The notes under the pieces were generated by a model. The model was not told the origin of the DNA. It was given only the letters and a program-made list of their open reading frames with translations, and made no database searches. The position numbers and the translations under genes are program-made. This document shows, piece after piece, positions 1-11,162 of a stretch of DNA of 11,251 nt (positions are counted from its first letter, which is position 1; each line of letters opens with the position of its first letter). Origin of the DNA: an uncultured bacterium (GTDB lineage: Bacteria; Lernaellota; Lernaellaia; Lernaellales; Lernaellaceae); the NCBI GenBank assembly GCA_964534375.1, contig CAZHPN010000188.1:1-11251 (forward strand). Direction: 5' to 3'.

Positions 1-2
1 TG

Positions 3-44
3 CCGCGTGAAATCTTTGCACCAGAACAAGAAACAAAGGAATAG
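3..44 (+). CDS. Possible 3' end of an upstream gene entering the window (...PREIFAPEQETKE*)
   Basis: Frame 3 reads CCG CGT GAA ATC TTT GCA CCA GAA CAA GAA ACA AAG GAA TAG TAG: a protein-like C-terminus, tandem stops, then hairpins. Too short to verify. Confidence 0.25.
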   Translation, partial: PREIFAPEQETKE

Positions 45-317
45 TAGTACAGAGAGCACAGCGAATCAAACATTATTAGGCTCTGTACTACTATCCGCGA
101 ATTTCTTCGCTCGGCGCGAAGAATTTGGAAAGTTGAATACAACCGCAGATTACGCCGATGAACGCAGATTAGCGTGGCGGGCCGGGGCGAAATTTCGGCC
201 GCCGAAATTTCGATTTCCCGGCCCGCAAATCTGCGCCAATCTGCGCAATCTGCGGCTAAAGAAAAATCATTTGGTTGCGGCCGAAGGCCGCGCTAAGATC
301 TCTGTGTCTCTGTGGTT
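41..317. repeat. Composite palindromic intergenic repeat region (REP/MITE-like)
   Basis: 14-bp inverted repeat ATAGTAGTACAGAG (41-54) / CTCTGTACTACTAT (81-94). TTCTTCGC/GCGAAGAA hairpin (103-123). CGCAGATT arms (143-170) opposite AATCTGCG x3 (228-255), enclosing CGAAATTTCGGC-C-GCCGAAATTTCG (188-212). GCGGCC-GAA-GGCCGC (277-291). TCTCTGTGTCTCTGTGG (about 299-315). Confidence 0.75.
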
Positions 318-339
318 CAATCCAAAATCGTCCGCGGCC

Positions 340-1653
340 TCACCCGCCGGGAAACAGGTCGTGCAGAATCTGCAGGATGGTGACGATCTTGGTCTTCAAG
401 CCGGTCGGGTCGGCGTCGTAATAGCTCTTGCCGAAATCGATCGACAGGAACGACCAATCCGGAATGATCGCCGGCAACCCGAAGGCCGTCAGCAGGGGAT
501 TCAAATATGACAGCAGGAACGGATGCGGCACGCCGTGGTCGATGTCGTACGCCGTGTAGTCGAGGAAGCTCGCGGCCAGGTGCTGCAACACGCCCTGGAT
601 GGCCCAGGCCACCTGGTTCTCGCTCGGGGTGAGATCGCCCCACGACGGCACGATCAACGGGTCGTTGGGGTTCCATTGGTGCGTGCCGCTGAGGTCGTCA
701 TAACCGAGCACGGTGCCGGCCGGAGTGCCGCTCTCCTTCGTCATCATCGTGAAGGTTTCCGAGGCGTGCAGGAAGCCCAGGCCGGCCTCCAACCCCGCGG
801 CCTTCCACGGCGCCGCGTTGTCTTTGAGCGTGAGGAAGTCCGGGAACAGCGGGTTGTCGAAAAGTTCGAGCAACAGATTGACGAAATTGCCGAACACGAC
901 GTCGAACGACCCGTGGAAATCGAAGCCCACGATCTCGAAAATGACGCCGAGTTCGCAATCCAGATTCAGCGCCGGCACATGCGCAAGCAGGCCGCCGATC
1001 GAGCCGGCCCAGGCCTCGGCCGCCACCGCCGCGGTCAGGTCGAAGTTGCCGTTGGGGTTGGCCACCTGGGCGAAATTGAGAATGATCGGCATCGAAGCCA
1101 ACGGGTAGACGATCGTGGGATCGTTCGCGCGCAACCACTCGACCTCGGCGATGGCCTCATTCGCGGAGTCGACGTAGGCGGAGTTGATGATAATGTCCAC
1201 CAGTTCGTCAAAGAAACCCTGACCGGTTTGCGGCTCGTCGAATTTCGTCGGCGGCTGGTAGCCTTTGATCGCGGCCGCCACGTAAGAAACGATGATGGAA
1301 ATCGTGTCGAATTGGTTCAACGTGTCGGCTAGCGTCAGACCATAGCGGCAATTGACCGCGTCCGGGTCGATGCTCAAGCCCTGCTGGAACTGCAGCGCCG
1401 ACAGGCCGCCGTTGCCCGTGAGCAACAACTGTTTGCCGGCTTCGCAATACGGCTCGGCCGGCGACGGCGAGGTGTCGTCGTCCGCTGGCGAAGCGTCGTC
1501 ATCGTCCGGCGAGGCGTCGTCGTCCGCCGGCGTAACGTCGTCATCTGCCGCCGTGGAACTGCTCGATTTGCTGCTGCTGGCGCACGCGGCCGCCAACATG
1601 ACGATTGCGGCCAAAAACACAACGATTAGGGCGAAGCGTCTAACAAATAACAT
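340..1653 (-). CDS. Uncharacterised lipoprotein (437 aa) with Ser/Asp-rich linker and helical, TPR-like N-terminal segment
   Basis: Start moved from 1689 to ATG 1653, which follows a GGGGAG RBS; the predicted -10 lies at 1690-1695. MLFVRRFALIVVFLAAIVMLAAA-C is a type II signal peptide with lipobox. It is followed by SSSKSSSST, four (A/D)DDDxxP repeats and a globular region with GC3-biased codons. Confidence 0.85.
   Translation of the reverse strand: MLFVRRFALIVVFLAAIVMLAAACASSSKSSSSTAADDDVTPADDDASPDDDDASPADDDTSPSPAEPYCEAGKQLLLTGNGGLSALQFQQGLSIDPDAVNCRYGLTLADTLNQFDTISIIVSYVAAAIKGYQPPTKFDEPQTGQGFFDELVDIIINSAYVDSANEAIAEVEWLRANDPTIVYPLASMPIILNFAQVANPNGNFDLTAAVAAEAWAGSIGGLLAHVPALNLDCELGVIFEIVGFDFHGSFDVVFGNFVNLLLELFDNPLFPDFLTLKDNAAPWKAAGLEAGLGFLHASETFTMMTKESGTPAGTVLGYDDLSGTHQWNPNDPLIVPSWGDLTPSENQVAWAIQGVLQHLAASFLDYTAYDIDHGVPHPFLLSYLNPLLTAFGLPAIIPDWSFLSIDFGKSYYDADPTGLKTKIVTILQILHDLFPGG
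1465..1548 (-). repeat. 4 x 21-bp imperfect coding tandem repeat (ADDDVTP-ADDDASP-DDDDASP-ADDDTSP)
   Basis: Read directly from the DNA and the translation. Confidence 0.9.
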
Positions 1654-1689
1654 GAATGTCTCCCCTAGCACGATAGACTCAAGGTCCAC

Positions 1690-1718
1690 ATCATAAAAGC
1701 CTTCAAACCGACAAGCAA
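1690..1718 (-). promoter_or_regulatory. Putative sigma70 promoter of the lipoprotein gene
   Basis: Minus strand TTGCTT-17 bp-TATGAT in an AT-rich patch; the -10 ends about 36 bp upstream of ATG 1653. Confidence 0.55.
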
Positions 1719-1888
1719 TAGCAAGTTCCAGGCATTGCGAATTCTAAACAAAGTTGTGGTTGCCGCGGTCTCGTTCCGTTGGAGGCTTGACGTTCGCTCC
1801 GCAGTAGCGTGAAATGCGAATGAGACGGGCGGACGTTCCAGATTGCCGCGGTTTTGCGCAATCCGCTCCCAGGAAAGGTAAATAACGA

Positions 1889-2284
1889 ATGAAGACTGTT
1901 CATTTCTTGATGCTGTCGCTTTGCCTAGCCGCGGTCGGCGCGTTTTTGTGGGCCTGCGTCGACAGCCCCGCGGCGACCAATGGCGGTTGCACCACCAGTG
2001 AATTGGCGTGCGGCGGCAAGTGCTGCCCCGACAACGTTCACTACGCGTGCGCTTCGACCGGCTGCGTGCTGACCAGTTGCGACGAAGGTCTGATGATGTG
2101 CGGTCCCGGCTGCATTGCCGTTACGGCGGTTTGCTGCAGCCAGGTGACCGGGCTCAGTTGCGAAACCGGCGAGACTTGCTGCGGGGCCGGCTGCATACCG
2201 CTGTTCACCTCGTGCTGCTCCAACGGCCACTACTGCCCGGAGGGCACCGTCTGCTGCAACAACGGCACGCAATGTTGCCAGTAG
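1889..2284 (+). CDS. Cysteine-rich secreted protein/lipoprotein (131 aa, 24 Cys)
   Basis: AGGAAAGG RBS upstream. Signal peptide MKTVHFLMLSLCLAAVGAFLWA-C with lipobox-like LWAC. The mature part is built of repeated C-x5/6-C(C)-x3-C-x6-CC modules. Consistent TGC codon use. Confidence 0.85.
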   Translation: MKTVHFLMLSLCLAAVGAFLWACVDSPAATNGGCTTSELACGGKCCPDNVHYACASTGCVLTSCDEGLMMCGPGCIAVTAVCCSQVTGLSCETGETCCGAGCIPLFTSCCSNGHYCPEGTVCCNNGTQCCQ

Positions 2285-2397
2285 CCGCGCGCGGCTGAAG
2301 CCCGGAACTCGCCGTCGCCGATTATCGTCCGCTTCGCGGCGCCGCTCGGCGTCAGTTGCGCAACCGCCCGTCCGACCTATACTTGGTTGGGCCGTGG

Positions 2398-2426
2398 TTG
2401 ATACGGCGGGTCGGTTGTGCTAAAAG
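2398..2426 (+). promoter_or_regulatory. Possible promoter for small ORF-tatA
   Basis: TTGATA-17 bp-TAAAAG with an extended -10 TG; the final conserved T of the -10 is absent. Confidence 0.3.
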
Positions 2427-2458
2427 CGGGCCGTGCGAATGACGGGGAGGGGGCTCCG

Positions 2459-2590
2459 ATGCTCGAACGTTGGCGGAAATATTGGCCGGATGCCGTGCTG
2501 GCGGGCTTGATTCTGTACGCCTGCCTGCTCGGCTTCGCCACAGTCGACGAACTCATGGGCTGGGGCCTGATCACCCCGTACTTCAAGTAA
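2459..2590 (+). CDS. Small membrane protein (43 aa), not in the ORF track: MLERWRKYWPDAVLAGLILYACLLGFATVDELMGWGLITPYFK
   Basis: ATG 2459 follows a GGGGAGG RBS; TAA at 2588-2590, 15 bp before the tatA ATG. Basic/aromatic N-terminus, one hydrophobic helix, GC3-rich codons. Confidence 0.75.
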   Translation: MLERWRKYWPDAVLAGLILYACLLGFATVDELMGWGLITPYFK

Positions 2591-2605
2591 AGCGAGGACA
2601 GCAAC

Positions 2606-2842
2606 ATGTTTCACGGCATCGGTTTCGGCGAACTGCTCGTCATTCTGGTGATCGTCATTATCGTTTTTGGCGTGGGCAAACTGCCGGAAGTCGGCCGCGG
2701 CCTGGGCAAGGGCATCCGCGAGTTCCGCGAGGCGACCAAGACGGAAGAAGAGAAGATCCGCGATCGGGAAGACAAAGCGCGGATCACGGCGGAAGCGAGC
2801 AAGACCGAAGACCCGAACAAAACCACCGACAAGCCGGCCTGA
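2606..2842 (+). CDS. tatA: Twin-arginine translocase TatA/TatE subunit (78 aa)
   Basis: [40 protein letters not shown] helix, FG hinge, amphipathic helix and charged tail; GAGGA RBS. Confidence 0.96.
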
Positions 2843-2861
2843 AGCGGCGACGGCCCGCCAG

Positions 2862-3245
2862 CGAATAATGGGAATCATGGGAAGCCCGGGAAGCCTGAGA
2901 CGGCTTGCGCGGGCTTTGTGCCTTCAACACCAATTTGGGCGCTGAAAAGGGCCTGCGACTAGATAGGTCTTATAGGTCCTATAGGTCGTATAGGCCCTAT
3001 CGAGACTGTCGATTTTCTCGGATTGATCGATTTTGGCGAACGCGTCCCCCGCATAATGGCGAATGGCGAATGCAGAATCGCCGACGCGGCCCGAAATTCG
3101 CCATTCGCCATTCAACATTCAACATTTCGGTTTGCGCGCCCCAAAAAACTCAAGTTCGCAGCGATCGGTGGTCGGCGGTCGCGTGCGGAAGCGTAATCTT
3201 GTCGACAGTCTCTATCGCGCCGATGATTCGCATAATTCCCAGGCT
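2862..3245. repeat. Nested inverted/short tandem repeat region between convergent tatA and the AK-HSDH gene
   Basis: 9-mers GAATAATGG/GAATCATGG/GAAGCCCGG/GAAGCCTGA (about 2862-2898), mirrored at about 3221-3245. (T/G)ATAGGYCN x4 (2962-2997). 11-bp IR GAGACTGTCGA (3002-3012) / TCGACAGTCTC (3202-3212). Heptamers AATGGCG x2 + AATGCAG (3055-3075) opposite ATTCGCC x2 + ATTCAAC x2 (3096-3123). Confidence 0.8.
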
Positions 3246-5827
3246 CATCTGCCTCGCAGGGTCATCGAGGTTTTGAGGATATCCGACAGCACCCCGGCCG
3301 CGGTGACCAGGCCGCCGGCCCCCGCGCCTTGCACGATCAGCGGGTAATCGTGGTGCCGTTCGGTCGTGAAGGCGACGAACGCTTCGGTGCCGCGCAGGCG
3401 CGTCGCCGGGTGGTCCATCGGCACGTCGAGCGGGCCGACCTCGACCAGCGAGCGGCCGTCGCCGGGCCGCGCGCTCGGGTCGACGCGCGCCAGATATCGC
3501 AAAATCCGGTTTTCCTGCCGCAGCCGGTCGAGGCGGGCGCCGATCACCGCGTCGTAACCCTTTAGCGCCTCGTAAAATTCGGCCAGCGGCATCGGCCGCA
3601 GCATTTCCGCCGGCACCAGCGGCTCGACGCGAATGTCCGCGAACGCCAGCGGCAGGCCGAGTTCGCGCGACAGAATCAGCGCCTTGCGCGCCGCGTCCGT
3701 GCCCGACAGATCGTCTTGCGGATTGGGCTCGGTGTAGCCCAATTCCCGGGCTTTGCGCGTCGCCTCGGAAAGCGGCACGCCGCGCATGATTTCGTTGGTG
3801 ATATAGCCGAGCGTGCCCGAAAACGAACCCTCGATCAGCAGCGCGTGGTCGCCGGTGCGCACCAGGTTTTTCAGCGTCTCGATCACCGGCAGGCTCGCGC
3901 CGACCGTCGTCGAATAGAGATAGCCGCGGTGGCTGCGGCGCGCCGCGTCCATCAGCCGTTCGCGGTCCGGCCACGGAATGGTCAGCGGCTTCTTGTTCGC
4001 GGCGACGACGTGAATGCCGCGCGCGAACGCCTGCTCGTACAATTCCTCCATGCCGTCGGCGCCCGAACAATCGACCAGGATCGGCACCGGCAGCCGGCGC
4101 AACTGGTCCAGCAACGGCGTCAAATCGCCGAAGCCCGGGGCGCGGGCCGGCGCGGCGGCGAGGATTTCTTCCCATTTGTCGAGGTCGATGCCCTCTTCGT
4201 GGAAAACCACGCGGGCGCTGTCGCCGATGCCGACCACGCGCAGCGACACCTCGTTGTCGCGTTCGAGCCGCGCGCGTTCGTCGCGGATCTGCCGCAGCAG
4301 GCAGCCGCCGACCGTGCCCTTGCCGAGCAGCAGCAGCGAGACTTCCTGGTGCGCGAAATTGAACGCCGCGTGCACGGTGCGCACCGCCACCTGCGTGTCC
4401 GCCGCGTCGATCACGCACGAGATCGAGCGCGAACTGGCGCCTTGCGCGATGGCGCGAATCGGCACGCCGACCATGCCGAGCGATTGGAAAAAGCGGCCGT
4501 CGACGTTCACCGTGCGGCCCATCGCTTCGGCGACGAGGGTCAGCAGCGTCACGGGTTGCCGCACGTCGGTCGGCTCGACTTCGCCGCGGTGCAACTCCAT
4601 CGCCAACTCTTCGTGGATCGCGGCCGTCGCGCGTTCGACGTCGGAAATGCGCACGGCCGCCGCCACCGCCTGCCCGTGCGCGCTCAGCGACGCCATCCAG
4701 ATCGTGACGCCCGCGTTTTCCAGCGCCGTCAGCACGCGTCCGCTCACCTGCGCGCGCATGGCGATGCGGCGCACCTGCACGCCCAGCAGCGCCAGGTTCT
4801 CGATCGAGGTCACCGACGTCGCGGAGTTTTCGTCTTCGGCCCCCTGGGCGTCGATCAACGTGCCGGGGTCGTCCGGCTGCATCGTATTGCGGATGCGCAT
4901 CGCGATGCCGGATTCGATCAGCGGAATCATCGTGCGCGGGTGGAACATCGGCGCGCCGAAGTCGACCAATTCGAGCGCTTCCATGTAACTCAGGCGCGCG
5001 AGCGGGTACGCGTCGGCGACGATGCCCGGGTCGGCGGTCATGACGCCCGAGACGTCCGTCCAGATCACAACCTCTTCCGCGGCGAGCCAGCGCGCGAGCA
5101 TCGTGGCCGTGTAATCGGAGCCGTTGCGGCCGAGGGTCGTCGTGCGGCCATCGACCGTGCGGCCGAGAAAGCCGGTGGTGATCGGCGCCTTGCCGTCCCA
5201 GCCGGCCGCGAGTTCGGCGAGCCGCGCGCGCGTCGCGTCTTGATCGACCATCGCGGCGCCGAAGCGGTCGTCGGTGACCGTCCAGTCGCGCGAATCGACG
5301 AACACCGCCGGGATGCCGCGGGCGACGAGCAACTCCGTCAGCACCGCGCCGCTCAGCCGTTCGCCGAACGACATCACCAGGTCGAGGGTCTGGGCCGTTT
5401 GCTCGCGCAGCAGGCTGACGGCGTAGAGCAATTGGCGCAGGGGGAGGAGCAGCTCGCGCACGGTCGGCGTGATCGACGGCTTGTGCGCGGGCTTGCCGTG
5501 CTGTTGCTCGAACTGGCGCAGAATCATCAGGCCGTTCGAGGTGGTCAGATCCATCACCTCGTCGACGATTCGTTCGGCGCCGGTCAAATCGCCGCCGGCC
5601 GCCATTTCGGCCGCTTCGAGCAACCGATCCGTCGTGCGTTCCATCGCCGAAACCACTACCGCGATCGGGCCTTCGCGAAATGAACGCACGATGATTTCGA
5701 TCGCGCGCGTGAGCCGGTCCGCCGAACCGACGGACGTGCCGCCGAACTTGAGCACGCGGTATTTTTTCGCGGGCGCGTTCTGCGGCGCTTCGGTGGATGC
5801 GTCGCTCGGCGTTTCCTTCTTCTTCAT
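3245..5827 (-). CDS. thrA: Bifunctional aspartate kinase / homoserine dehydrogenase (860 aa; ThrA-type architecture, in a methionine operon)
   Basis: AK motifs KFGGTSVG, VVVSAM, SFGERLS, TTLGRNGSDYTA, IWTDVSGVMTADP. Two ACT-like segments. HSDH motifs GKGTVGG, AANKK, TVGASLP, SGTLGYI, GYTEPNPQDDLSGTDAARK. Confidence 0.95.
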   Translation of the reverse strand: MKKKETPSDASTEAPQNAPAKKYRVLKFGGTSVGSADRLTRAIEIIVRSFREGPIAVVVSAMERTTDRLLEAAEMAAGGDLTGAERIVDEVMDLTTSNGLMILRQFEQQHGKPAHKPSITPTVRELLLPLRQLLYAVSLLREQTAQTLDLVMSFGERLSGAVLTELLVARGIPAVFVDSRDWTVTDDRFGAAMVDQDATRARLAELAAGWDGKAPITTGFLGRTVDGRTTTLGRNGSDYTATMLARWLAAEEVVIWTDVSGVMTADPGIVADAYPLARLSYMEALELVDFGAPMFHPRTMIPLIESGIAMRIRNTMQPDDPGTLIDAQGAEDENSATSVTSIENLALLGVQVRRIAMRAQVSGRVLTALENAGVTIWMASLSAHGQAVAAAVRISDVERATAAIHEELAMELHRGEVEPTDVRQPVTLLTLVAEAMGRTVNVDGRFFQSLGMVGVPIRAIAQGASSRSISCVIDAADTQVAVRTVHAAFNFAHQEVSLLLLGKGTVGGCLLRQIRDERARLERDNEVSLRVVGIGDSARVVFHEEGIDLDKWEEILAAAPARAPGFGDLTPLLDQLRRLPVPILVDCSGADGMEELYEQAFARGIHVVAANKKPLTIPWPDRERLMDAARRSHRGYLYSTTVGASLPVIETLKNLVRTGDHALLIEGSFSGTLGYITNEIMRGVPLSEATRKARELGYTEPNPQDDLSGTDAARKALILSRELGLPLAFADIRVEPLVPAEMLRPMPLAEFYEALKGYDAVIGARLDRLRQENRILRYLARVDPSARPGDGRSLVEVGPLDVPMDHPATRLRGTEAFVAFTTERHHDYPLIVQGAGAGGLVTAAGVLSDILKTSMTLRGR

Positions 5828-5830
5828 CGC

Positions 5831-6904
5831 TTATTCCTTTTCCAATTCGACGCGCCGCCGAAATTCGACGACCATTTCGCTCAGCGCGTCCGTATCGATC
5901 AAAAACGAATCGTGGCCGTGAGGCGAATCGAGCCGGCGCAACTCCGCGTGCGGCAGCAGCCGCGCCAGTTCCTCTTGCTCCTCGGGCGGGTAGAGCACAT
6001 CCGACGGAATCGACACGACCAGCGCCGGCTGCCGGACGCCGCGCAGCGTTTCTTCGTAGCCGCCGCGGCCGCGCGCTACGTCGTGCGCGTCCATCGCTTC
6101 GGTCAATTTCATATACGTGCAGGCGTCGAAGCGGTCCACCAGCTTGCGGCCCTGGTGGCGCAGGTAGCTCTCGACCGCGAACAGGCCCGTTTCGTCTTGC
6201 GGCCGGCGGTCGAATCGTTGGTCGAAACTCGCGCGGCTGCGGTACGTGCACATCGCGATCATGCGCGCGACGGCGAGGCCCGCCGCCGGCGGCGATTCCG
6301 GCGCATAGCGGCCGTCGCGCCAGAGCGGATCGGCGCAGATCGCCTGCCGTTGGGCCTCGGACAAGCCGATGCACCACGCGGAATGCCGGCCGGAGACGGC
6401 GATCGGGGCGACCGCGCGAACCAGCGCCGGATAGAGCAGCGGCCATTCGAGCGCCAGCATGCCGCCGAGCGAGCCGCCGAGCGCCAGTTGCACGCGGCGC
6501 ACGCCCAGATGCTGCAGCAGGGCGAATTGCAGGCGCACCATGTCGCGCACGGTGACCGGCGGGAAATCGGGGCCGTAGCGCCGGCCGGAAGCCGGATCGA
6601 TCGCGGTTGGCCCGGTTGTGCCATAGCAACTGCCGAGCAGATTCGCGCAGACGACGAAGTCGCGGTCCGGATCGAGCGCGCGGCCGGGCCCGAACATGCC
6701 GGCCCACCAGCGATCCGCATCCGCCGAGCCGGTCAGGGCGTGGCAGACGACGACCGCGTTGTCGCCGGCTTCGTTCAGCACGCCCCACGTGCGGTAGGCG
6801 ACGCGCACGGGCGCCAGCCGCCGGCCCGCTTCGAGTTCGACGCCGTCGGGCAGGTCGAAGAACCGCGTTTCAGGCGAGACGAGGTTTTCGAGGTCCGCGC
6901 CCAT
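5831..6904 (-). CDS. metX: Homoserine O-acetyltransferase (alpha/beta hydrolase, MetX family, 357 aa)
   Basis: VCHALTG, NLLGSCYGTTGP, nucleophile elbow GGSLGGM, SDVLYP (Asp), HGHDSFL (His). AAGGAG RBS; 9 bp after the metY stop and 3 bp before the AK-HSDH start. Confidence 0.96.
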   Translation of the reverse strand: MGADLENLVSPETRFFDLPDGVELEAGRRLAPVRVAYRTWGVLNEAGDNAVVVCHALTGSADADRWWAGMFGPGRALDPDRDFVVCANLLGSCYGTTGPTAIDPASGRRYGPDFPPVTVRDMVRLQFALLQHLGVRRVQLALGGSLGGMLALEWPLLYPALVRAVAPIAVSGRHSAWCIGLSEAQRQAICADPLWRDGRYAPESPPAAGLAVARMIAMCTYRSRASFDQRFDRRPQDETGLFAVESYLRHQGRKLVDRFDACTYMKLTEAMDAHDVARGRGGYEETLRGVRQPALVVSIPSDVLYPPEEQEELARLLPHAELRRLDSPHGHDSFLIDTDALSEMVVEFRRRVELEKE

Positions 6905-6913
6905 GCTGCTCCT

Positions 6914-8269
<1,356 letters not shown>

Positions 8270-8341
8270 CTACTTCAACCACGGGAGTTTGTCCAGATTG
8301 GCGCGCCGTGGCTGCGCCGCGCCCAGGCGCAAGGTGGGGCG

Positions 8342-8377
8342 CTGGGAGTCATGGGAGTTCTGGAAAATCTGGGAAAT
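8342..8377. repeat. 4 x 9-bp imperfect tandem repeat (CTGGGAGTC ATGGGAGTT CTGGAAAAT CTGGGAAAT)
   Basis: Read directly; same TGGGAR core and 9-bp period as the repeat at about 2862-2898. Confidence 0.7.
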
Positions 8378-8450
8378 GCGCGGCGCCGCGTCGCACAACT
8401 TGTGTTGTTTTCGTCGACTCTGCGAACGACGGCCGGCTTCCGGCTGCCGA

Positions 8451-8478
8451 CTTTTTCCTTTTTCCTTTTTCCTTCCCC
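8451..8478. repeat. Heptamer tandem repeat (CTTTTTC)x3 + CTTCCCC
   Basis: Read directly; lies immediately downstream of the ispH-fusion stop codon. Confidence 0.8.
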
Positions 8479-8481
8479 CGC

Positions 8482-10227
8482 TCAGCCCGCCCAGCGCCAC
8501 GTCAGCGCCAGCAACCCGGCGACGATGAAATGCAAATCGACGATCATGTCGCGCTTGAGCGTCGCCATCTTCGCCGGCCACCGCGTGAATTCCACGAGCA
8601 GGAACTCGCCGAGGATCCACACCGCCAGCGGCCACGCCAGGCCCGGCAGCCAGCCGAGCGCGGCGGTCACAAAGAGCCCCGCGGCGAGGCCGACGATCGA
8701 GAAGCGCAGCAGCGTTCGCGTGCGTTGCGGGCCGAAGATCAGCGGCACGGTTTCGCGGCCCACCAGCCGGTCGGCGGCCATGTCGGAGAGGTCGAGAAAG
8801 ACCGAGCGGATGCCGGTGACCATGAACAGAAACAGAAACGCCAGGATCAGCCGGCGCCAATCGCGCGTCTCGGCGACGAAGAACAACGGGAAAATGCTGA
8901 CCAGCGCCCACGCCGAGGCGATGAAGACGTTTTTGCTCGCCGCCAGGTCTTTCAGGCGGCGGAAGCCGAAAACGCCCATCCAACTTTTCGGCACGACCCG
9001 CACGGAGTACAGCACGCCGACGATCGACGCCGCCAGCACGATGAGAAACGGGATCACGCCGAGGTGGAAGCCGAGCCAGATCGAAACGAGGCCCGAGCCC
9101 AGGCCCACCGGCCACAGCCAGAGCGTGTGCCGGCGATAGAACGTCTGCCGCTTCGGGTCGTCGCGGAACTTGTCGACGCCGGTTTCGGTGAAGCGATTGA
9201 GCACGTGCATCGACAGCACGTACAACGCGACCAGCAGGAAGAAATCGAAACGGAACGGCACGCCCAGCAGCGCCGCGCCGACGTAGGCGAGCGAGCCCGC
9301 GGCGAGGCCGGTCGTCGCGTGCGTCGCCGCCAGCGCCTCGAGCAGCCGCCGCGCCCGCGCCCGCCCCGGCCGCAGCTCTTCTTCTTCGAGTTCCCGCAGC
9401 CGGGTCATGACGCGGTCGATGATCCAACTCGGCGTGCTGGCGCCGGCCGTGACGCCCACTTTGTCGTACGGCGTGAAGTCGATGCCTTCGAGTTCCTCGG
9501 CGACCTCGATCTGCCAGGTCGGCAGGCCGAGTTCTTCGGTGATGGCCGCCAACCGGCGCGTGTTGCCGCTGTTGCGGCCGCCGACGACCAGCATGGCCTG
9601 CACGTGTTTGGCGAGGTCGCGCACTTCCTCCTGTTTGAGCTCGGTGGCGTTGCAGATCGTATGTCGAACTTCGAGCCGCGCGAATTTCGGTTGGACGTGC
9701 TCGATCAATTGCTGGTACCGCTCGCGATTGGCCGTCGTTTGCGCAACGAGCGTCAGCGGCGCGTCCGGCGACAGGCCCAGCGCGTCGAATTCCGCCTCGT
9801 CGCGCACGACAAAGCACGGCCGGCCGCGCGCGGCGCCGACCAGACCCACGACCTCCGGGTGCTCGGCGTCGCCGAAGATGACGATCGTGCGGCCCTCGGC
9901 GGCCTGCCGCTCGACCGTCGTCTGCACCGCGCGCACCTTCGGGCAGGTGGCGTCGAGCAGCGCCAGGCCGCGCGCGCTCAACTCCTCGATCACCGGCGGC
10001 GGCACGCCGTGCGTGCGAATCACCGCCATGCCGCTGCGGATGTCGTCGAGGTTGTCGGTGCAGCCGATGTCGCGCAGCTTCAGCAACTCGATCACCTGCG
10101 GGTTGTGCACCAACGGCCCGTACGTCGTGATCCGCTCGTGCCGCGAGCCGCTCTCCGACAACACCATGTCCACCGCCCGGCGCACCCCGAAACAAAAACC
10201 CGCGCTCTCGGCGAGGACGAATTTCAT
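8482..10227 (-). CDS. ispH: 4-hydroxy-3-methylbut-2-enyl diphosphate reductase (IspH/LytB) fused to a C-terminal UbiA-family prenyltransferase-like membrane domain (581 aa)
   Basis: N-terminal ~280 aa: AGFCFGVRRAV, GPLVHN, IRTHG, DATCPKV, HPEV, AQTT, TICNAT, GGRNSGNT, TAGASTP, including all three 4Fe-4S Cys. C-terminal ~300 aa: multiple TM helices with NRFTETGVD and DLSDMAADRLVGRETVP motifs. GGGAGG RBS. Confidence 0.93.
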   Translation of the reverse strand: MKFVLAESAGFCFGVRRAVDMVLSESGSRHERITTYGPLVHNPQVIELLKLRDIGCTDNLDDIRSGMAVIRTHGVPPPVIEELSARGLALLDATCPKVRAVQTTVERQAAEGRTIVIFGDAEHPEVVGLVGAARGRPCFVVRDEAEFDALGLSPDAPLTLVAQTTANRERYQQLIEHVQPKFARLEVRHTICNATELKQEEVRDLAKHVQAMLVVGGRNSGNTRRLAAITEELGLPTWQIEVAEELEGIDFTPYDKVGVTAGASTPSWIIDRVMTRLRELEEEELRPGRARARRLLEALAATHATTGLAAGSLAYVGAALLGVPFRFDFFLLVALYVLSMHVLNRFTETGVDKFRDDPKRQTFYRRHTLWLWPVGLGSGLVSIWLGFHLGVIPFLIVLAASIVGVLYSVRVVPKSWMGVFGFRRLKDLAASKNVFIASAWALVSIFPLFFVAETRDWRRLILAFLFLFMVTGIRSVFLDLSDMAADRLVGRETVPLIFGPQRTRTLLRFSIVGLAAGLFVTAALGWLPGLAWPLAVWILGEFLLVEFTRWPAKMATLKRDMIVDLHFIVAGLLALTWRWAG

Positions 10228-10262
10228 GACGCGGACCTCCCGGCGGCTGCCGCCGCCGGGGA

Positions 10263-10268
10263 AGTATA
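10263..10268 (-). promoter_or_regulatory. Probable -10 element (TATACT) for ispH
   Basis: TATACT on the minus strand, 35 bp upstream of ATG 10227; no good -35. Confidence 0.4.
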
Positions 10269-10365
10269 ACCGGGAGGGTGGATGAAGACGACCCGTAAGT
10301 GACTAGCGCCCGCGCTCCCCGCGACGGTCGACGAGCCACGCATCGTACCTATTTGATCAGAATTA

Positions 10366-10394
10366 TTGACTTCATCTCCGAACCTCAATAAGGT
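10366..10394 (+). promoter_or_regulatory. Putative sigma70 promoter of the R-M remnant/MTase unit
   Basis: TTGACT-17 bp-TAAGGT with AT-rich upstream sequence, followed by GGAGG at 10403-10407. Confidence 0.6.
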
Positions 10395-10413
10395 CCCGAA
10401 CTGGAGGCGGTCA

Positions 10414-10476
10414 TTGGGCGGCTGCCCGATTCTGGTTTTCGGGATCAACAACGGCCTCTACATCGAGGGCGAATAA
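10414..10476 (+). pseudogene. Remnant (C-terminal ~19 codons) of a BglII/BstYI-family type II restriction endonuclease: (M)GGCPILVFGINNGLYIEGE*
   Basis: GGCPILVFGI...LY matches, from recall, the C-terminal motif of the endonucleases that accompany this MT-A70 subfamily. Its TAA overlaps the MTase ATG (TAATG). A TTG start lies 6 nt after GGAGG. Confidence 0.65.
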
Positions 10477-11162
10477 TGGCGGGCCTGATCACGCCGGCGC
10501 AGGATTTCATCGCGAACGTCAAAGGTCGGTTTTCCACTGTGCTGGCCGATCCGCCGTGGCGTTTTTCCAATCGAACCGGGAAAATGGCACCGGAGCACCG
10601 CCGGCTCAGCCGCTACGAAACGCTCACCCTGCACGAGATCATGGAAATCCCGGTGCCGTTGGTCGCCGCGGAGAAAAGTCACCTTTACCTGTGGGTTCCG
10701 AACGCGTTGCTGGCCGAAGGCTTGGCGGTCCTGAAGGCGTGGGGGTTCACGTACAAGACCAATATCGTCTGGCACAAAGTGCGCAAAGACGGCGGACCGG
10801 ACGGCCGGGGCGTCGGCTTTTATTTCCGCAATACGACGGAAATGGTGCTCTTCGGCGTGCGCGGACATCTGCGCACGCTCGACCCCGGGCGCAAACAGGT
10901 GAATATCATCCGCACCGAAAAGCGCGAGCACTCGCGAAAGCCGGATGAGCTTTACGACGTGATCGAGACCTGCAGCCCCGGCCCATATCTCGAACTCTTC
11001 GCCCGCGGCGAGCGCCCGGGCTGGGCGCAATGGGGCAACCAGGTGGAAAACTACGAGCCGACCTGGGCCACGTACGCCAACCACTCGCGCCGGCGTTCGG
11101 CCGAGCCGCAGGTTCTGGACTTGTTCGGCGACGGCAAGCCGATGCGGAGGGCCCGCCGCTGA
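10476..11162 (+). CDS. MT-A70 family amino-methyltransferase (probable N6-adenine DNA methyltransferase, 228 aa)
   Basis: Catalytic ADPPW, HLYLWVPN, WGFTYKTNIVWHK, GVGFYFRNTTE, REHSRKP, LELFARG, WGNQ. Confidence 0.93.
   Translation: MAGLITPAQDFIANVKGRFSTVLADPPWRFSNRTGKMAPEHRRLSRYETLTLHEIMEIPVPLVAAEKSHLYLWVPNALLAEGLAVLKAWGFTYKTNIVWHKVRKDGGPDGRGVGFYFRNTTEMVLFGVRGHLRTLDPGRKQVNIIRTEKREHSRKPDELYDVIETCSPGPYLELFARGERPGWAQWGNQVENYEPTWATYANHSRRRSAEPQVLDLFGDGKPMRRARR

Follow-up and report, generated by a model that had tools for sequence, protein, structure and literature searches.

IspH is an essential enzyme and a target both for drugs and for engineering. The closest described relatives of the protein analyzed here are the 47 IspH-UbiA hybrid 'Rosetta stone' proteins, all from sulfate-reducing anaerobes, that are presented in the available sections of a 2015 study (Rao, O'Dowd, Li, Wang & Oldfield 2015, Chem Sci 6:6813, PMC4746011). 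Those sections class the UbiA part of the hybrids as PT_UbiA_5, propose that IspH feeds the attached prenyltransferase (the 'make-and-use DMAPP' idea), name membrane localization as one possible role, and state that expression of the full-length hybrid failed. Within the portions of the literature available to us, no activity is reported for any IspH-UbiA membrane domain and no study later than that of Rao et al. was found. We note that, beyond their paper, the term occurs in one other article found, which merely cites it.

The window analyzed here, a stretch of 11,251 nucleotides from an uncultured bacterium of the Lernaellaceae (contig CAZHPN010000188.1 of assembly GCA_964534375.1), carries on its reverse strand (8482..10227, -) a single uninterrupted ORF with an ATG start, encoding 581 amino acids followed by a stop codon and beginning with MKFVLAESAGFCFGV, as read from the ORF list and its translation. 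The original prediction was that this one frame holds a complete IspH, a charged linker and a multi-spanning membrane domain, and the translation, the Pfam matches and an AlphaFold2 model all agree with it. The Pfam search that it had proposed returned both expected domains in the same ORF: LYTB (PF02401) over residues 4-277 (E 5e-83, 278.8 bits against a threshold of 24.5) and UbiA (PF01040) over residues 313-548 (E 1.4e-13; 51.2 bits, gathering score 34.2). The fusion is a new member of the published hybrid family, whose architecture was already described in 2015; it has the order given in the available sections of Rao et al. (PMC4746011), with an N-terminal IspH followed by a UbiA-like domain of about nine helices in a protein of about 580 residues.

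Among the 120 best full-length homologues, identity to the fusion ranges from 35 to 85% over 91-100% coverage, and the source names include Desulfobacteraceae, Smithella and Syntrophales; Desulfobacterales, Thermodesulfobacteriota and Dethiosulfatarculus are found among the related loci. The hybrids from Desulfobacterales, Syntrophales and Thermodesulfobacteriota are homologous over their full length at 35-40% identity (E of about 1e-113 to 1e-122). The statement in the original prediction that such fusions occur in sulfate-reducer-type Deltaproteobacteria and have no known product is in keeping with the available sections of Rao et al. 2015 (PMC4746011). Unlike the hybrids presented there, the fusion has as its nearest public relatives metagenome-assembled genomes (MAGs) labelled FEN-1099, Candidatus Lernaella or 'Myxococcales'.

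That two neighboring genes were joined through a sequencing error, making the fusion an artefact of assembly or annotation, is so improbable that we set it aside. Nothing was found in support of this explanation, although these MAGs are not free of errors or pseudogenes, as illustrated by one relative (G008) in which the IspH part is spread across two frames. Against it, among 80 related loci in other genomes 73 have a frame of at least 569 amino acids open across the match, both Pfam domains are present in 120/120 of the best full-length homologues, and the LYTB locus lies within a frame of 585-640 amino acids in 13 of the phylum's 17 species genomes, being frame-shifted or cut by contig ends in the remaining four.

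The IspH (HMBPP reductase) domain occupies residues 1-283 (9379..10227, -). It matches NCBIfam TIGR00216 (ispH_lytB) with 270.3 bits against a cut-off of 187.85, spanning model positions 3-281 of 282, and phmmer aligns it over its full length with Aquifex IspH 3dnf (E 2.7e-63) and with E. coli IspH (E 1e-36). Foldseek likewise recovers the trefoil alpha/beta fold of 3dnf (E 1.4e-21, TM 0.82 by target, 40% identity), with further matches to 3ke8 and others at TM 0.81-0.84. C12 (10192-10194, -), C95 (9943-9945, -) and C192 (9652-9654, -) align with the Cys residues of the Aquifex and E. coli enzymes; from what is known of the E. coli structures, we take these three to be the [4Fe-4S] ligands, E125 to be catalytic, and the conserved His, Thr, Ser and Asn residues to bind substrate. 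C95, C192, H41, H73, H123, E125, T164, T165, S220, N222 and S264 are invariant in 120/120 fusion homologues, and C12 is present in 117/120, the other three having gaps at this position. The domain shares its fold and catalytic residues with the stand-alone IspH/LytB proteins of Aquifex aeolicus (3dnf) and E. coli (3ke8), from which the fusion differs by some 300 additional C-terminal residues making up the linker and the membrane domain. It is distinct as well from the fusion of IspH with ribosomal protein S1 (NF000907; Rao et al. 2015, PMC4746011, available sections): the IspH half matches positions 1-283 of that 671-position model, the score reaches 285 bits against a cut-off of 624, and the protein has no S1 repeats, so that membership in the IspH-RPS1 group was rejected.

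A LYTB search of the fusion's own genome, which is 94% complete, returned one locus only, the fusion itself, and across the 17 species genomes of this phylum the count is likewise one LYTB locus per genome. IspG was found in the same genome and a search of it for HMG-CoA reductase returned no match, leaving the MEP pathway as the only route seen. Since the fusion is the sole IspH found in this setting, it would be the housekeeping IspH of the organism, and we infer from these gene contents that it converts HMBPP to IPP and DMAPP. It is in our view very probable that the protein belongs to the known hybrid family and works as a functional, membrane-tethered, housekeeping IspH.

Between the two domains lies a charged helical linker, residues 277-303 (LRELEEEELRPGRARARRLLEALAATH; 9319..9399, -), modelled as two helices (267-285 and 287-302); the charged segment singled out in the original prediction, LRELEEEELRPGRARARR, is found at residues 277-294 of the translation. 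This region (residues 281-305) is the least conserved part of the protein, with a mean pairwise identity of 0.55 within its own clade and 0.23 family-wide. The UbiA-superfamily membrane domain follows at residues 304-581 (8485..9318, -), with nine predicted transmembrane helices on the combined evidence of Pfam, AlphaFold2, hydropathy and Foldseek. The AlphaFold2 model of the whole fusion (mean pLDDT 90.5, pTM 0.79) shows an alpha/beta IspH domain, the two linker helices and nine long helices within residues 304-580. These nine helices are hydrophobic (mean Kyte-Doolittle 0.8-2.8, compared with -1.4 to 0.4 for those helices of the IspH domain and linker that were examined alongside), and the loops of the membrane domain predicted to be cytoplasmic carry 20 Lys+Arg residues versus 2 on the opposite side, a positive-inside bias. 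The N-terminus and the motif loops are accordingly placed on the predicted cytoplasmic side, the same side as IspH. When the IspH (1-285) and UbiA (300-581) parts were submitted to complex prediction as separate chains, the outcome was 'no answer' (score 0.04, mark 0.32), which weighs neither for nor against a contact between them.

The prediction that the C-terminal domain adopts the UbiA fold was upheld by Foldseek, which matched it, with a probability of 1.00, to AfUbiA 4tq3 (E 3.4e-5, TM 0.66 by target), ApUbiA 4od4, DGGGP synthase 7bpu/6m31 and UBIAD1 8djk. The nine-helix fold is common to the solved UbiA proteins (AfUbiA 4tq3/4tq4, ApUbiA 4od4/4od5, DGGGP synthase 6m31/7bpu, UBIAD1 8djk) and to the fusion (TM by target 0.52-0.66), as is an Asp-rich second motif; the AfUbiA structures 4tq3/4tq4 are bound to GPP or DMAPP with Mg2+. 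In contrast to these proteins, with which it shares 14-18% identity, the fusion has a Glu for the first Asp of motif 1 and is joined to IspH.

Both Asp-rich motifs lie where the original prediction had placed them. The second, R474 ... D479-LS-D482-MAA-D486-RLV-G490-R-E492-T493-V-P495 (8743..8808, -), contains the DLSDMAAD segment (residues 479-486, 8770-8793) within a D479-x2-D482-x3-D486-x3-G490-x2-T493-x-P495 context, so that the DxxxD signature typical of loop 6-7 in UbiA proteins is present as D482-MAA-D486, with D479 ahead of it. It is near-invariant family-wide: D486 is found in 120/120 homologues and 92/92 representatives, G490 in 120/120, D479 in 118/120 and R474 in 114/120, and position 482 is Asp in 104 and Glu in 14 of the 120. 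Comparable conservation extends over a stretch running from the end of helix 4 through a cytoplasmic loop to the start of helix 5 (Y407-K432; 8932..9009, -), in which Y407 (120/120), P413 (119/120), D427 (118/120), S431 (117/120) and K432 (119/120) stand out among the fusion homologues.

The first motif is a variant one, N344-RFT-E348-TGV-D352-KFR-D356-D357 followed by R360 (9157..9198, -), in which the segment NRFTETGVD spans residues 344-352 (9172-9198) and Glu replaces the first Asp at position 348, giving the pattern N-x3-E-x3-D-x3-DD. In a BLASTP alignment with a paralogue from the same genome, E348 and D352 align with both Asp residues of a canonical NxxxDxxxD. Conservation of the Asp motifs in homologues, on which the original prediction depended, proved to hold for the second motif throughout and for the first within the fusion's own clade (n=33), where N344 (33/33), an acidic residue at 348 (E/D, 33/33), D/E352 (32/33), D479 (33/33) and D486 (33/33) are retained; it did not hold for the first motif family-wide. 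There, position 348 is Gly in 49, Glu in 36 and Asp in 30 of 120 homologues, about 20 of the 120 have patterns such as NGAIG that lack the acidic pair, and at most one acidic residue separates N344 from R360 in 15 of 92 representatives; the commonest first motif of the distant homologues, those of Desulfobacterales included, is N-x3-G-x3-D-x2-N-D, as opposed to the N-x3-E-x3-D-x3-DD of the fusion. Because the first motif is so often degenerate, canonical two-motif prenyl transfer cannot be a function that all members have in common, and if they do share a single function, it would need no canonical first motif. Within its own clade, the UbiA domain is conserved as much as the IspH domain (mean pairwise identity 0.71 vs 0.72; invariant columns 21% vs 20%).

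The position of this domain among named prenyltransferases was judged by curated HMM cut-offs, and on these grounds the expectation that it would stand apart from the ordinary quinone prenyltransferases was supported. The equivalog cut-offs for UbiA, MenA, MqnP, CyoE/CtaB, ChlG/BchG, DGGGP synthase and decaprenyl-phosphate phosphoribosyltransferase were not reached by the fusion protein, and the UbiA (TIGR01474), MenA (TIGR00751), MqnP (NF041585), CyoE/CtaB (TIGR01473) and DPPRS models gave no match to the full protein at E up to 1. Its best non-IspH NCBIfam match is NF009523 (28.1 bits, cut-off 269), and the DGGGP synthase models NF009521/2 reach 16-20 bits against cut-offs of 278-353. For all 12 fusion C-domains tested, the closest curated model is NF010117 (PRK13591, an uncharacterized 'prenyltransferase'), with a best E of 1.2e-16 and a score far under its 238-bit cut-off; the fusion protein itself scores 27 bits with this model, which is also the closest one to the nearest stand-alone relatives (74-81 bits). 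Clusters of such stand-alone UbiA proteins, about 285-311 residues long and not fused to IspH, are likewise without an assigned function, and one of them in the Atlas matches the fusion domain structurally (TM 0.97/0.89). A length-restricted search for the C-domain on its own returned six matches, mostly on contigs of 1-4 kb, and the 34 shorter representatives comprise 21 with a LYTB fragment, which points to truncated fusions, and 13 with UbiA alone, some of which are likely to be true stand-alone relatives of the PRK13591 type. Judging from these searches, stand-alone forms of the fusion's UbiA domain are rare.

An ordinary quinone, haem or archaeal-type lipid prenyltransferase (UbiA, MenA, MqnP, CyoE or DGGGP synthase) that merely happens to be fused to IspH is therefore a very unlikely identity for the domain. 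In its favor are the weak NCBIfam matches to archaeal-type prenyltransferase and DGGGP synthase models, together with the fact that a profile of the C-domain finds a single, weak match among PDB sequences, DGGGP synthase 6m31 (E 2e-5). Those NCBIfam matches, however, do not exceed 30 bits where the cut-offs lie at 238-353, and the ubiA_proteo, cyoE_ctaB and MqnP models find no match in the fusion protein at E up to 1. The genome moreover encodes, apart from the fusion, a MenA-like protein and six other stand-alone UbiA-family proteins; in having a separate MenA-like gene it resembles the genomes of Rao et al., for which the available sections also describe separate UbiA/MenA (PMC4746011). An archaeal-type, DGGGPS-like role in ether-lipid synthesis was rejected in view of the low scores of the DGGGPS models and of a search for PcrB/GGGP synthase that found none in the 94%-complete genome. 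Nor does the gene neighborhood single out a pathway. In 80 related loci, neighbors were collected by simple ORF calling and BLAST clustering, and 77 loci were counted (the row of the window itself and loci L015, L018 and L019 being left out): no cluster occurs beside the fusion in more than 22 of the 77, the recurrent neighbors are housekeeping genes (ParA, ParB, YacP-NYN, a convergent PlsY, Smr, EF-G and cyclophilin), and neither an isoprenoid, quinone or lipid-ether gene nor a conserved acceptor-pathway gene was found among them. Elsewhere in the window, the ORFs at 1-3300 have no match in PHROGs or Pfam; a promoter and terminator scan of positions 8000-10700, which gave one promoter-like site and six terminator-like sites versus 3.3 expected, was uninformative.

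Beyond the architecture, fold, residue conservation and sole-copy status documented above, what the membrane half does has to be argued from its residues. In the working model that we favor, the N-terminal domain would use a [4Fe-4S] cluster on C12, C95 and C192 to reduce HMBPP to IPP and DMAPP, and the nine-helix UbiA-type domain would hold it at the cytoplasmic face of the inner membrane. In this clade the membrane domain appears still to have a putative cytoplasm-facing diphosphate/Mg2+ site, its residues invariant or nearly so among the 33 clade members. Loop 2-3 would contribute N344, E348, D352, D356/D357 and R360 to it, the surroundings of loop 4-5 Y407 and K432, and loop 6-7 R474, D479, D482 and D486. 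The domain would most likely bind a prenyl diphosphate there and pass the prenyl group to some membrane acceptor, the donor being either the DMAPP produced by the adjoining IspH domain or a longer chain derived from that DMAPP. UbiA-family enzymes normally take long-chain donors from separate synthases, so that the proximity of IspH would bring no obvious kinetic gain, and we consider it unlikely that DMAPP in particular, channelled over from IspH, is the donor. We put prenyltransferase activity of the UbiA domain in this clade at a little short of an even chance, and the explanation as a whole, a housekeeping hybrid of IspH with a prenyl-transferring UbiA domain, at about even odds. It is the same working model as that found in the available sections of Rao et al. 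2015 (PMC4746011).

A rather less probable alternative is that the UbiA-like domain has lost prenyl transfer and acts instead as a sensor. The second Asp motif and the basic residues that it retains would then bind a prenyl diphosphate from further down the pathway (FPP, GGPP or undecaprenyl-PP) and so tune the attached IspH, which would provide MEP-pathway feedback at the membrane. The near-invariance of the second motif, Y407, K432 and R474 next to a first motif that varies, or is lost in some members, accords with a domain that binds its ligand but does not catalyse in the canonical way; this domain hardly ever occurs without IspH, and the 77 loci offer no conserved acceptor-pathway neighbor. 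UBIAD1, a UbiA-family protein, binds HMG-CoA reductase and controls its degradation, and its complex with that enzyme (8djk) is among the Foldseek matches of the C-domain; the available part of one report describes inhibition of HMGCR degradation through binding to UBIAD1 (PMC9314443). The analogy is nonetheless one of fold and logic only, and the acidic residues of the first motif, for which pure sensing has no obvious need, are strictly kept in the clade of the window. We know of no IspH that is regulated by prenyl diphosphates via such a domain. A UbiA-derived domain that serves purely as an anchor, its old site ligand-free, and that only localizes IspH, for instance near an electron donor or membrane-bound isoprenoid consumers, seems improbable to us. 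Membrane localization does figure as a possible role in the available sections of Rao et al. 2015 (PMC4746011), some family members have a degenerate first motif, and in some Atlas LYTB clusters of about 579 residues (commonest phylum Spirochaetota) the membrane domain is no longer recognized as UbiA by Pfam. Yet the degree to which D486, Y407, K432 and G490 are retained is not what would be expected of an anchor, the domain is as conserved within the phylum as the catalytic IspH, and its conserved residues, when mapped through the fold match, appear to cluster in the active-site loops of the solved UbiA enzymes. A more speculative proposal, to which we give limited credence, is that the domain is not of the quinone type at all and is either a prenyl-diphosphate sensor feeding back on IspH or a C5 prenyltransferase making a new prenylated membrane lipid in anaerobes. 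Either possibility would explain why the domain almost never occurs apart from IspH, why the first motif drifts when the second does not vary, and why the fusion is the sole IspH across a whole phylum; the sensor, if real, would correspond in bacteria, and in covalent form, to the pairing of UBIAD1 with HMG-CoA reductase.

What this window adds to the hybrid family is not a new kind of object but a FEN-1099/Lernaella-related clade with every part of the putative active site preserved, which makes its members a reasonable source of protein for biochemistry. As the membrane-bound form is the only copy of IspH in whole lineages, the end of the MEP pathway would be organized at the membrane in many anaerobes, and identifying a ligand of the strongly conserved membrane half would bring to light either a prenylated lipid or cofactor not described before or a novel form of feedback on the MEP pathway.

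The gene at 8482-10227 on the minus strand of the window is a single open frame of 581 residues, with no interruption in either the ORF listing or the translation. A Pfam search, proposed with the original prediction, found both domains in its product: LYTB spans residues 4-277 (E 5e-83) and UbiA residues 313-548 (E 1.4e-13; 51.2 bits vs a gathering score of 34.2). The protein scored 270 bits with the NCBIfam IspH equivalog TIGR00216, above the cut-off of 187.85. The IspH-UbiA fusion in one uninterrupted frame is therefore real and had been rightly described; the linker and both motifs lie exactly where they had been placed, NRFTETGVD falling on residues 344-352 (9172-9198) and DLSDMAAD on residues 479-486 (8770-8793) in the translation. 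An AlphaFold2 model built with 120 homologues as input (mean pLDDT 90.5, pTM 0.79) has an alpha/beta domain, followed by two helices in the linker and nine long ones (residues 304-580). In Foldseek comparisons, the N-terminal half resembled IspH structures (3dnf, E 1.4e-21, 40% identity) and the C-terminal half UbiA-superfamily structures, among them AfUbiA (4tq3, E 3.4e-5, TM 0.66 by target), ApUbiA (4od4), DGGGP synthase (7bpu/6m31) and UBIAD1 (8djk). All nine C-terminal helices are hydrophobic in character, and the predicted cytoplasmic loops of the C-terminal domain carry 20 Lys and Arg residues vs 2 on the opposite side, which puts the loops that bear the motifs, facing the cytoplasm, on the same side of the membrane as IspH.

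The fusion is very probably the organism's housekeeping IspH. It is the one LYTB match in its own genome (6.3 Mb, 94% complete), which also encodes IspG and in which, at that completeness, HMG-CoA reductase was not found. Each of the 17 species genomes of the phylum has one LYTB locus, 13 of them within frames of 585-640 aa; two loci of 506 and 513 aa are likely truncated since they lie near the start of a contig, one of 270 aa proved on checking to be cut off by the contig end, and one is broken over two frames within the IspH part. Aquifex and E. coli IspH can be aligned with the IspH domain along its whole length, the three Cys included; C95, C192, H41, H73, H123, E125, T164, T165, S220, N222 and S264 are invariant in all 120 fusion homologues, and C12 is present in 117, the other three having gaps.

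Its surroundings, too, are those of a housekeeping gene without a conserved partner: no family neighbours the fusion in more than 22 of 77 related loci, and those that recur are ParA/ParB, YacP, a convergent PlsY, Smr and EF-G. Here, it is followed after 215 bases, on the same strand, by a tight methionine/threonine-branch cluster (3245-8266) whose three genes, separated by 9 and 3 bases, encode according to Pfam a Cys_Met_Meta_PP enzyme similar to O-acetylhomoserine sulfhydrylase (6914-8266), an alpha/beta hydrolase similar to homoserine O-acetyltransferase (5831-6904) and an 860-aa aspartokinase/ACT/homoserine dehydrogenase fusion (3245-5827). Upstream and divergent lies a gene for an MT-A70-family DNA methyltransferase (10476-11162, plus strand; Pfam E 3.9e-31; PHROG 359 'DNA methyltransferase', E 4e-60). 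Over its left 3 kb, the window has a G+C content of 0.58-0.62 vs 0.64-0.70 elsewhere. A 449-aa ORF at 340-1689 (minus strand), with several rival ORFs lacking database matches on the other strand, possibly encodes a secreted lipoprotein: an N-terminal hydrophobic segment runs to a lipobox-like LAAAC and is followed by Asp-rich repeats of the ADDD.SP type, and no family was matched beyond a sub-threshold hit to DUF7537. A 131-aa ORF at 1889-2284 (plus strand) begins with what resembles a signal peptide, contains 24 Cys, many paired as CC, and matched nothing in Pfam or PHROG.

The fusion recurs across a widespread family. The 120 top-ranking homologues over the full length (562-606 aa, 35-85% identity) all have both Pfam domains, and their named sources include Myxococcales, Candidatus Lernaella stagnicola, Candidatus Alcyoniella, Smithella, Desulfobacteraceae and Syntrophales. 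With the C-terminal domain alone as query, an exhaustive HMMER search returned 857 cluster representatives at E <=1e-3 (359 at E <=1e-10), and 91 of the 150 representatives among the matches listed are 540-660 aa long. Of 34 shorter matches scanned, 21 start with a LYTB fragment, indicative of truncated fusions, and the remaining 13 contain UbiA alone; a search restricted to lengths of 157-501 aa yielded six relatives only. Species-representative genomes held 256 stretches coding for a relative; in 73 of the best 80 of these, the match sits within an open frame 569 aa or longer, and of the other seven, four begin at the first bases of a contig, two leave the end of the locus and one is a 528-aa frame. 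Labels among these 80 loci include Desulfobacterales, Syntrophales, Thermodesulfobacteriota, Dethiosulfatarculus sandiegensis, a Nitrospinaceae MAG and FEN-1099 MAGs, the last being nearest to the window (50-71% C-domain identity).

A few relatives depart from this pattern. In a Desulfobacteraceae MAG (L054:7071-9536), the fusion-bearing frame stays open over 822 aa to the contig end, which could reflect a C-terminal extension or an absent stop. In the genome of the window's phylum with the broken IspH part noted above (G008:C6:101975-102795, minus strand; locus L015), that part is divided between two overlapping frames of 381 and 528 aa, the cause being a frameshift or else an error of assembly. 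L015 probably corresponds to the 343-aa protein P0124, which is named 'UbiA family prenyltransferase' at its source and has 52% identity to the query C-domain, since both come from contigs of 145,778 bases. In one Atlas cluster of LYTB proteins of about 579 aa, for which Spirochaetota is the commonest phylum, the membrane half is structurally similar to the fusion C-domain (TM 0.85 by query) and yet goes unrecognised as UbiA by Pfam; the family is therefore wider, and its membrane domain more divergent, than Pfam annotation shows.

Judged from its 33 sequences, the UbiA domain in the window's clade is under as much constraint as IspH, with 21% vs 20% of columns invariant and a mean pairwise identity of 0.57 vs 0.58 (0.71 vs 0.72 in the 17 closest sequences). 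Over all 120 homologues, IspH averages 0.51 identity, the UbiA domain 0.39 and the linker 0.23. The only IspH of this organism is a membrane protein, anchored by a well-folded and strongly conserved UbiA-superfamily domain. Of the two Asp motifs in the original prediction, the second holds throughout the family, with D486 and G490 in 120/120 (D486 also in 92/92 representatives at 50% identity), D479 in 118, D or E at position 482 in 104 and 14, and R474 nearby in 114; Y407 (120/120) and K432 (119/120) are similarly retained. The first motif, in which E348 and D352 align by BLASTP with both Asp of the canonical NxxxDxxxD of a stand-alone paralogue, is kept in the window's clade and varies family-wide. 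N344 is found in 107/120, position 348 is G in 49, E in 36 and D in 30, and position 352 is D in 71; about 20 of the 120, a Smithella protein among them, show patterns like NGAIG without the acidic pair, and 15 of 92 representatives have at most one acidic residue from N344 to R360. The clade retains N-x3-E-x3-D-x3-DD, with N344, D356, D357 and R360 each in 33/33, position 348 as 32 E and 1 D, and position 352 as 28 D, 4 E and 1 N.

That the membrane domain is an ordinary quinone-type enzyme is very improbable. NCBIfam models for UbiA, MenA, MqnP, CyoE and phosphoribosyltransferases gave no match to the fusion protein, and all its non-IspH matches reached about 30 bits or less vs cut-offs of 238-353; the uncharacterised NF010117 (PRK13591) was matched, far under its cut-off, by 12 of 12 family members tested and also by the nearest stand-alone relatives. 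The genome has seven further, stand-alone UbiA-family genes, one MenA-like and two exceeding decaprenyl-phosphate phosphoribosyltransferase cut-offs. The paralogue mentioned above (G000:C2:70205-71140, minus strand, in the organism's own genome; L008:1381-2316) shares 29% identity with the fused domain across 194 residues (E 1e-9) and, like it, weakly matches PRK13591/PRK12884. Two polyprenyl synthases and a squalene-hopene cyclase are encoded; PcrB/GGGP synthase was not found in this genome, leaving an archaeal-type lipid role without support.

Rao et al. 2015 (PMC4746011) describe 47 hybrids of IspH and UbiA, occurring 'primarily in Desulfobacterales', with two DxxxD repeats, a UbiA part assigned to PT_UbiA_5, a class of unknown function, and modelled with Phyre2 on ApUbiA, and separate UbiA/MenA in the hybrid-bearing genomes; attempts to express the full-length protein failed. 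They propose that IspH, brought to the membrane by the UbiA domain, gives a high local concentration of IPP/DMAPP for a UbiA-like product. The fusion described here is a further member of this known family, and the hypothesis of the original prediction is the one already published. Our search of papers open without subscription found no later characterisation of such fusions and no reports of UbiA prenyltransferases fused to LytB; one other paper contains the term 'IspH-UbiA', in its reference list. We infer that the UbiA domain, putatively, still binds a diphosphate-Mg2+ ligand. A role as pure anchor, confined to the localisation proposed in that paper, is improbable for a domain with the conservation described here. 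A sensor or regulator role, suggested by the family-wide combination of an invariant second motif with a drifting first one and by the precedent of UBIAD1, a fold match here, binding HMG-CoA reductase (PMC9314443), we consider unlikely, if less so. Our tentative preference, held at somewhat under an even chance, is that in the window's clade the UbiA domain may still transfer a prenyl group. With its putative active site intact, the clade around the window is a possible source for the missing biochemistry.
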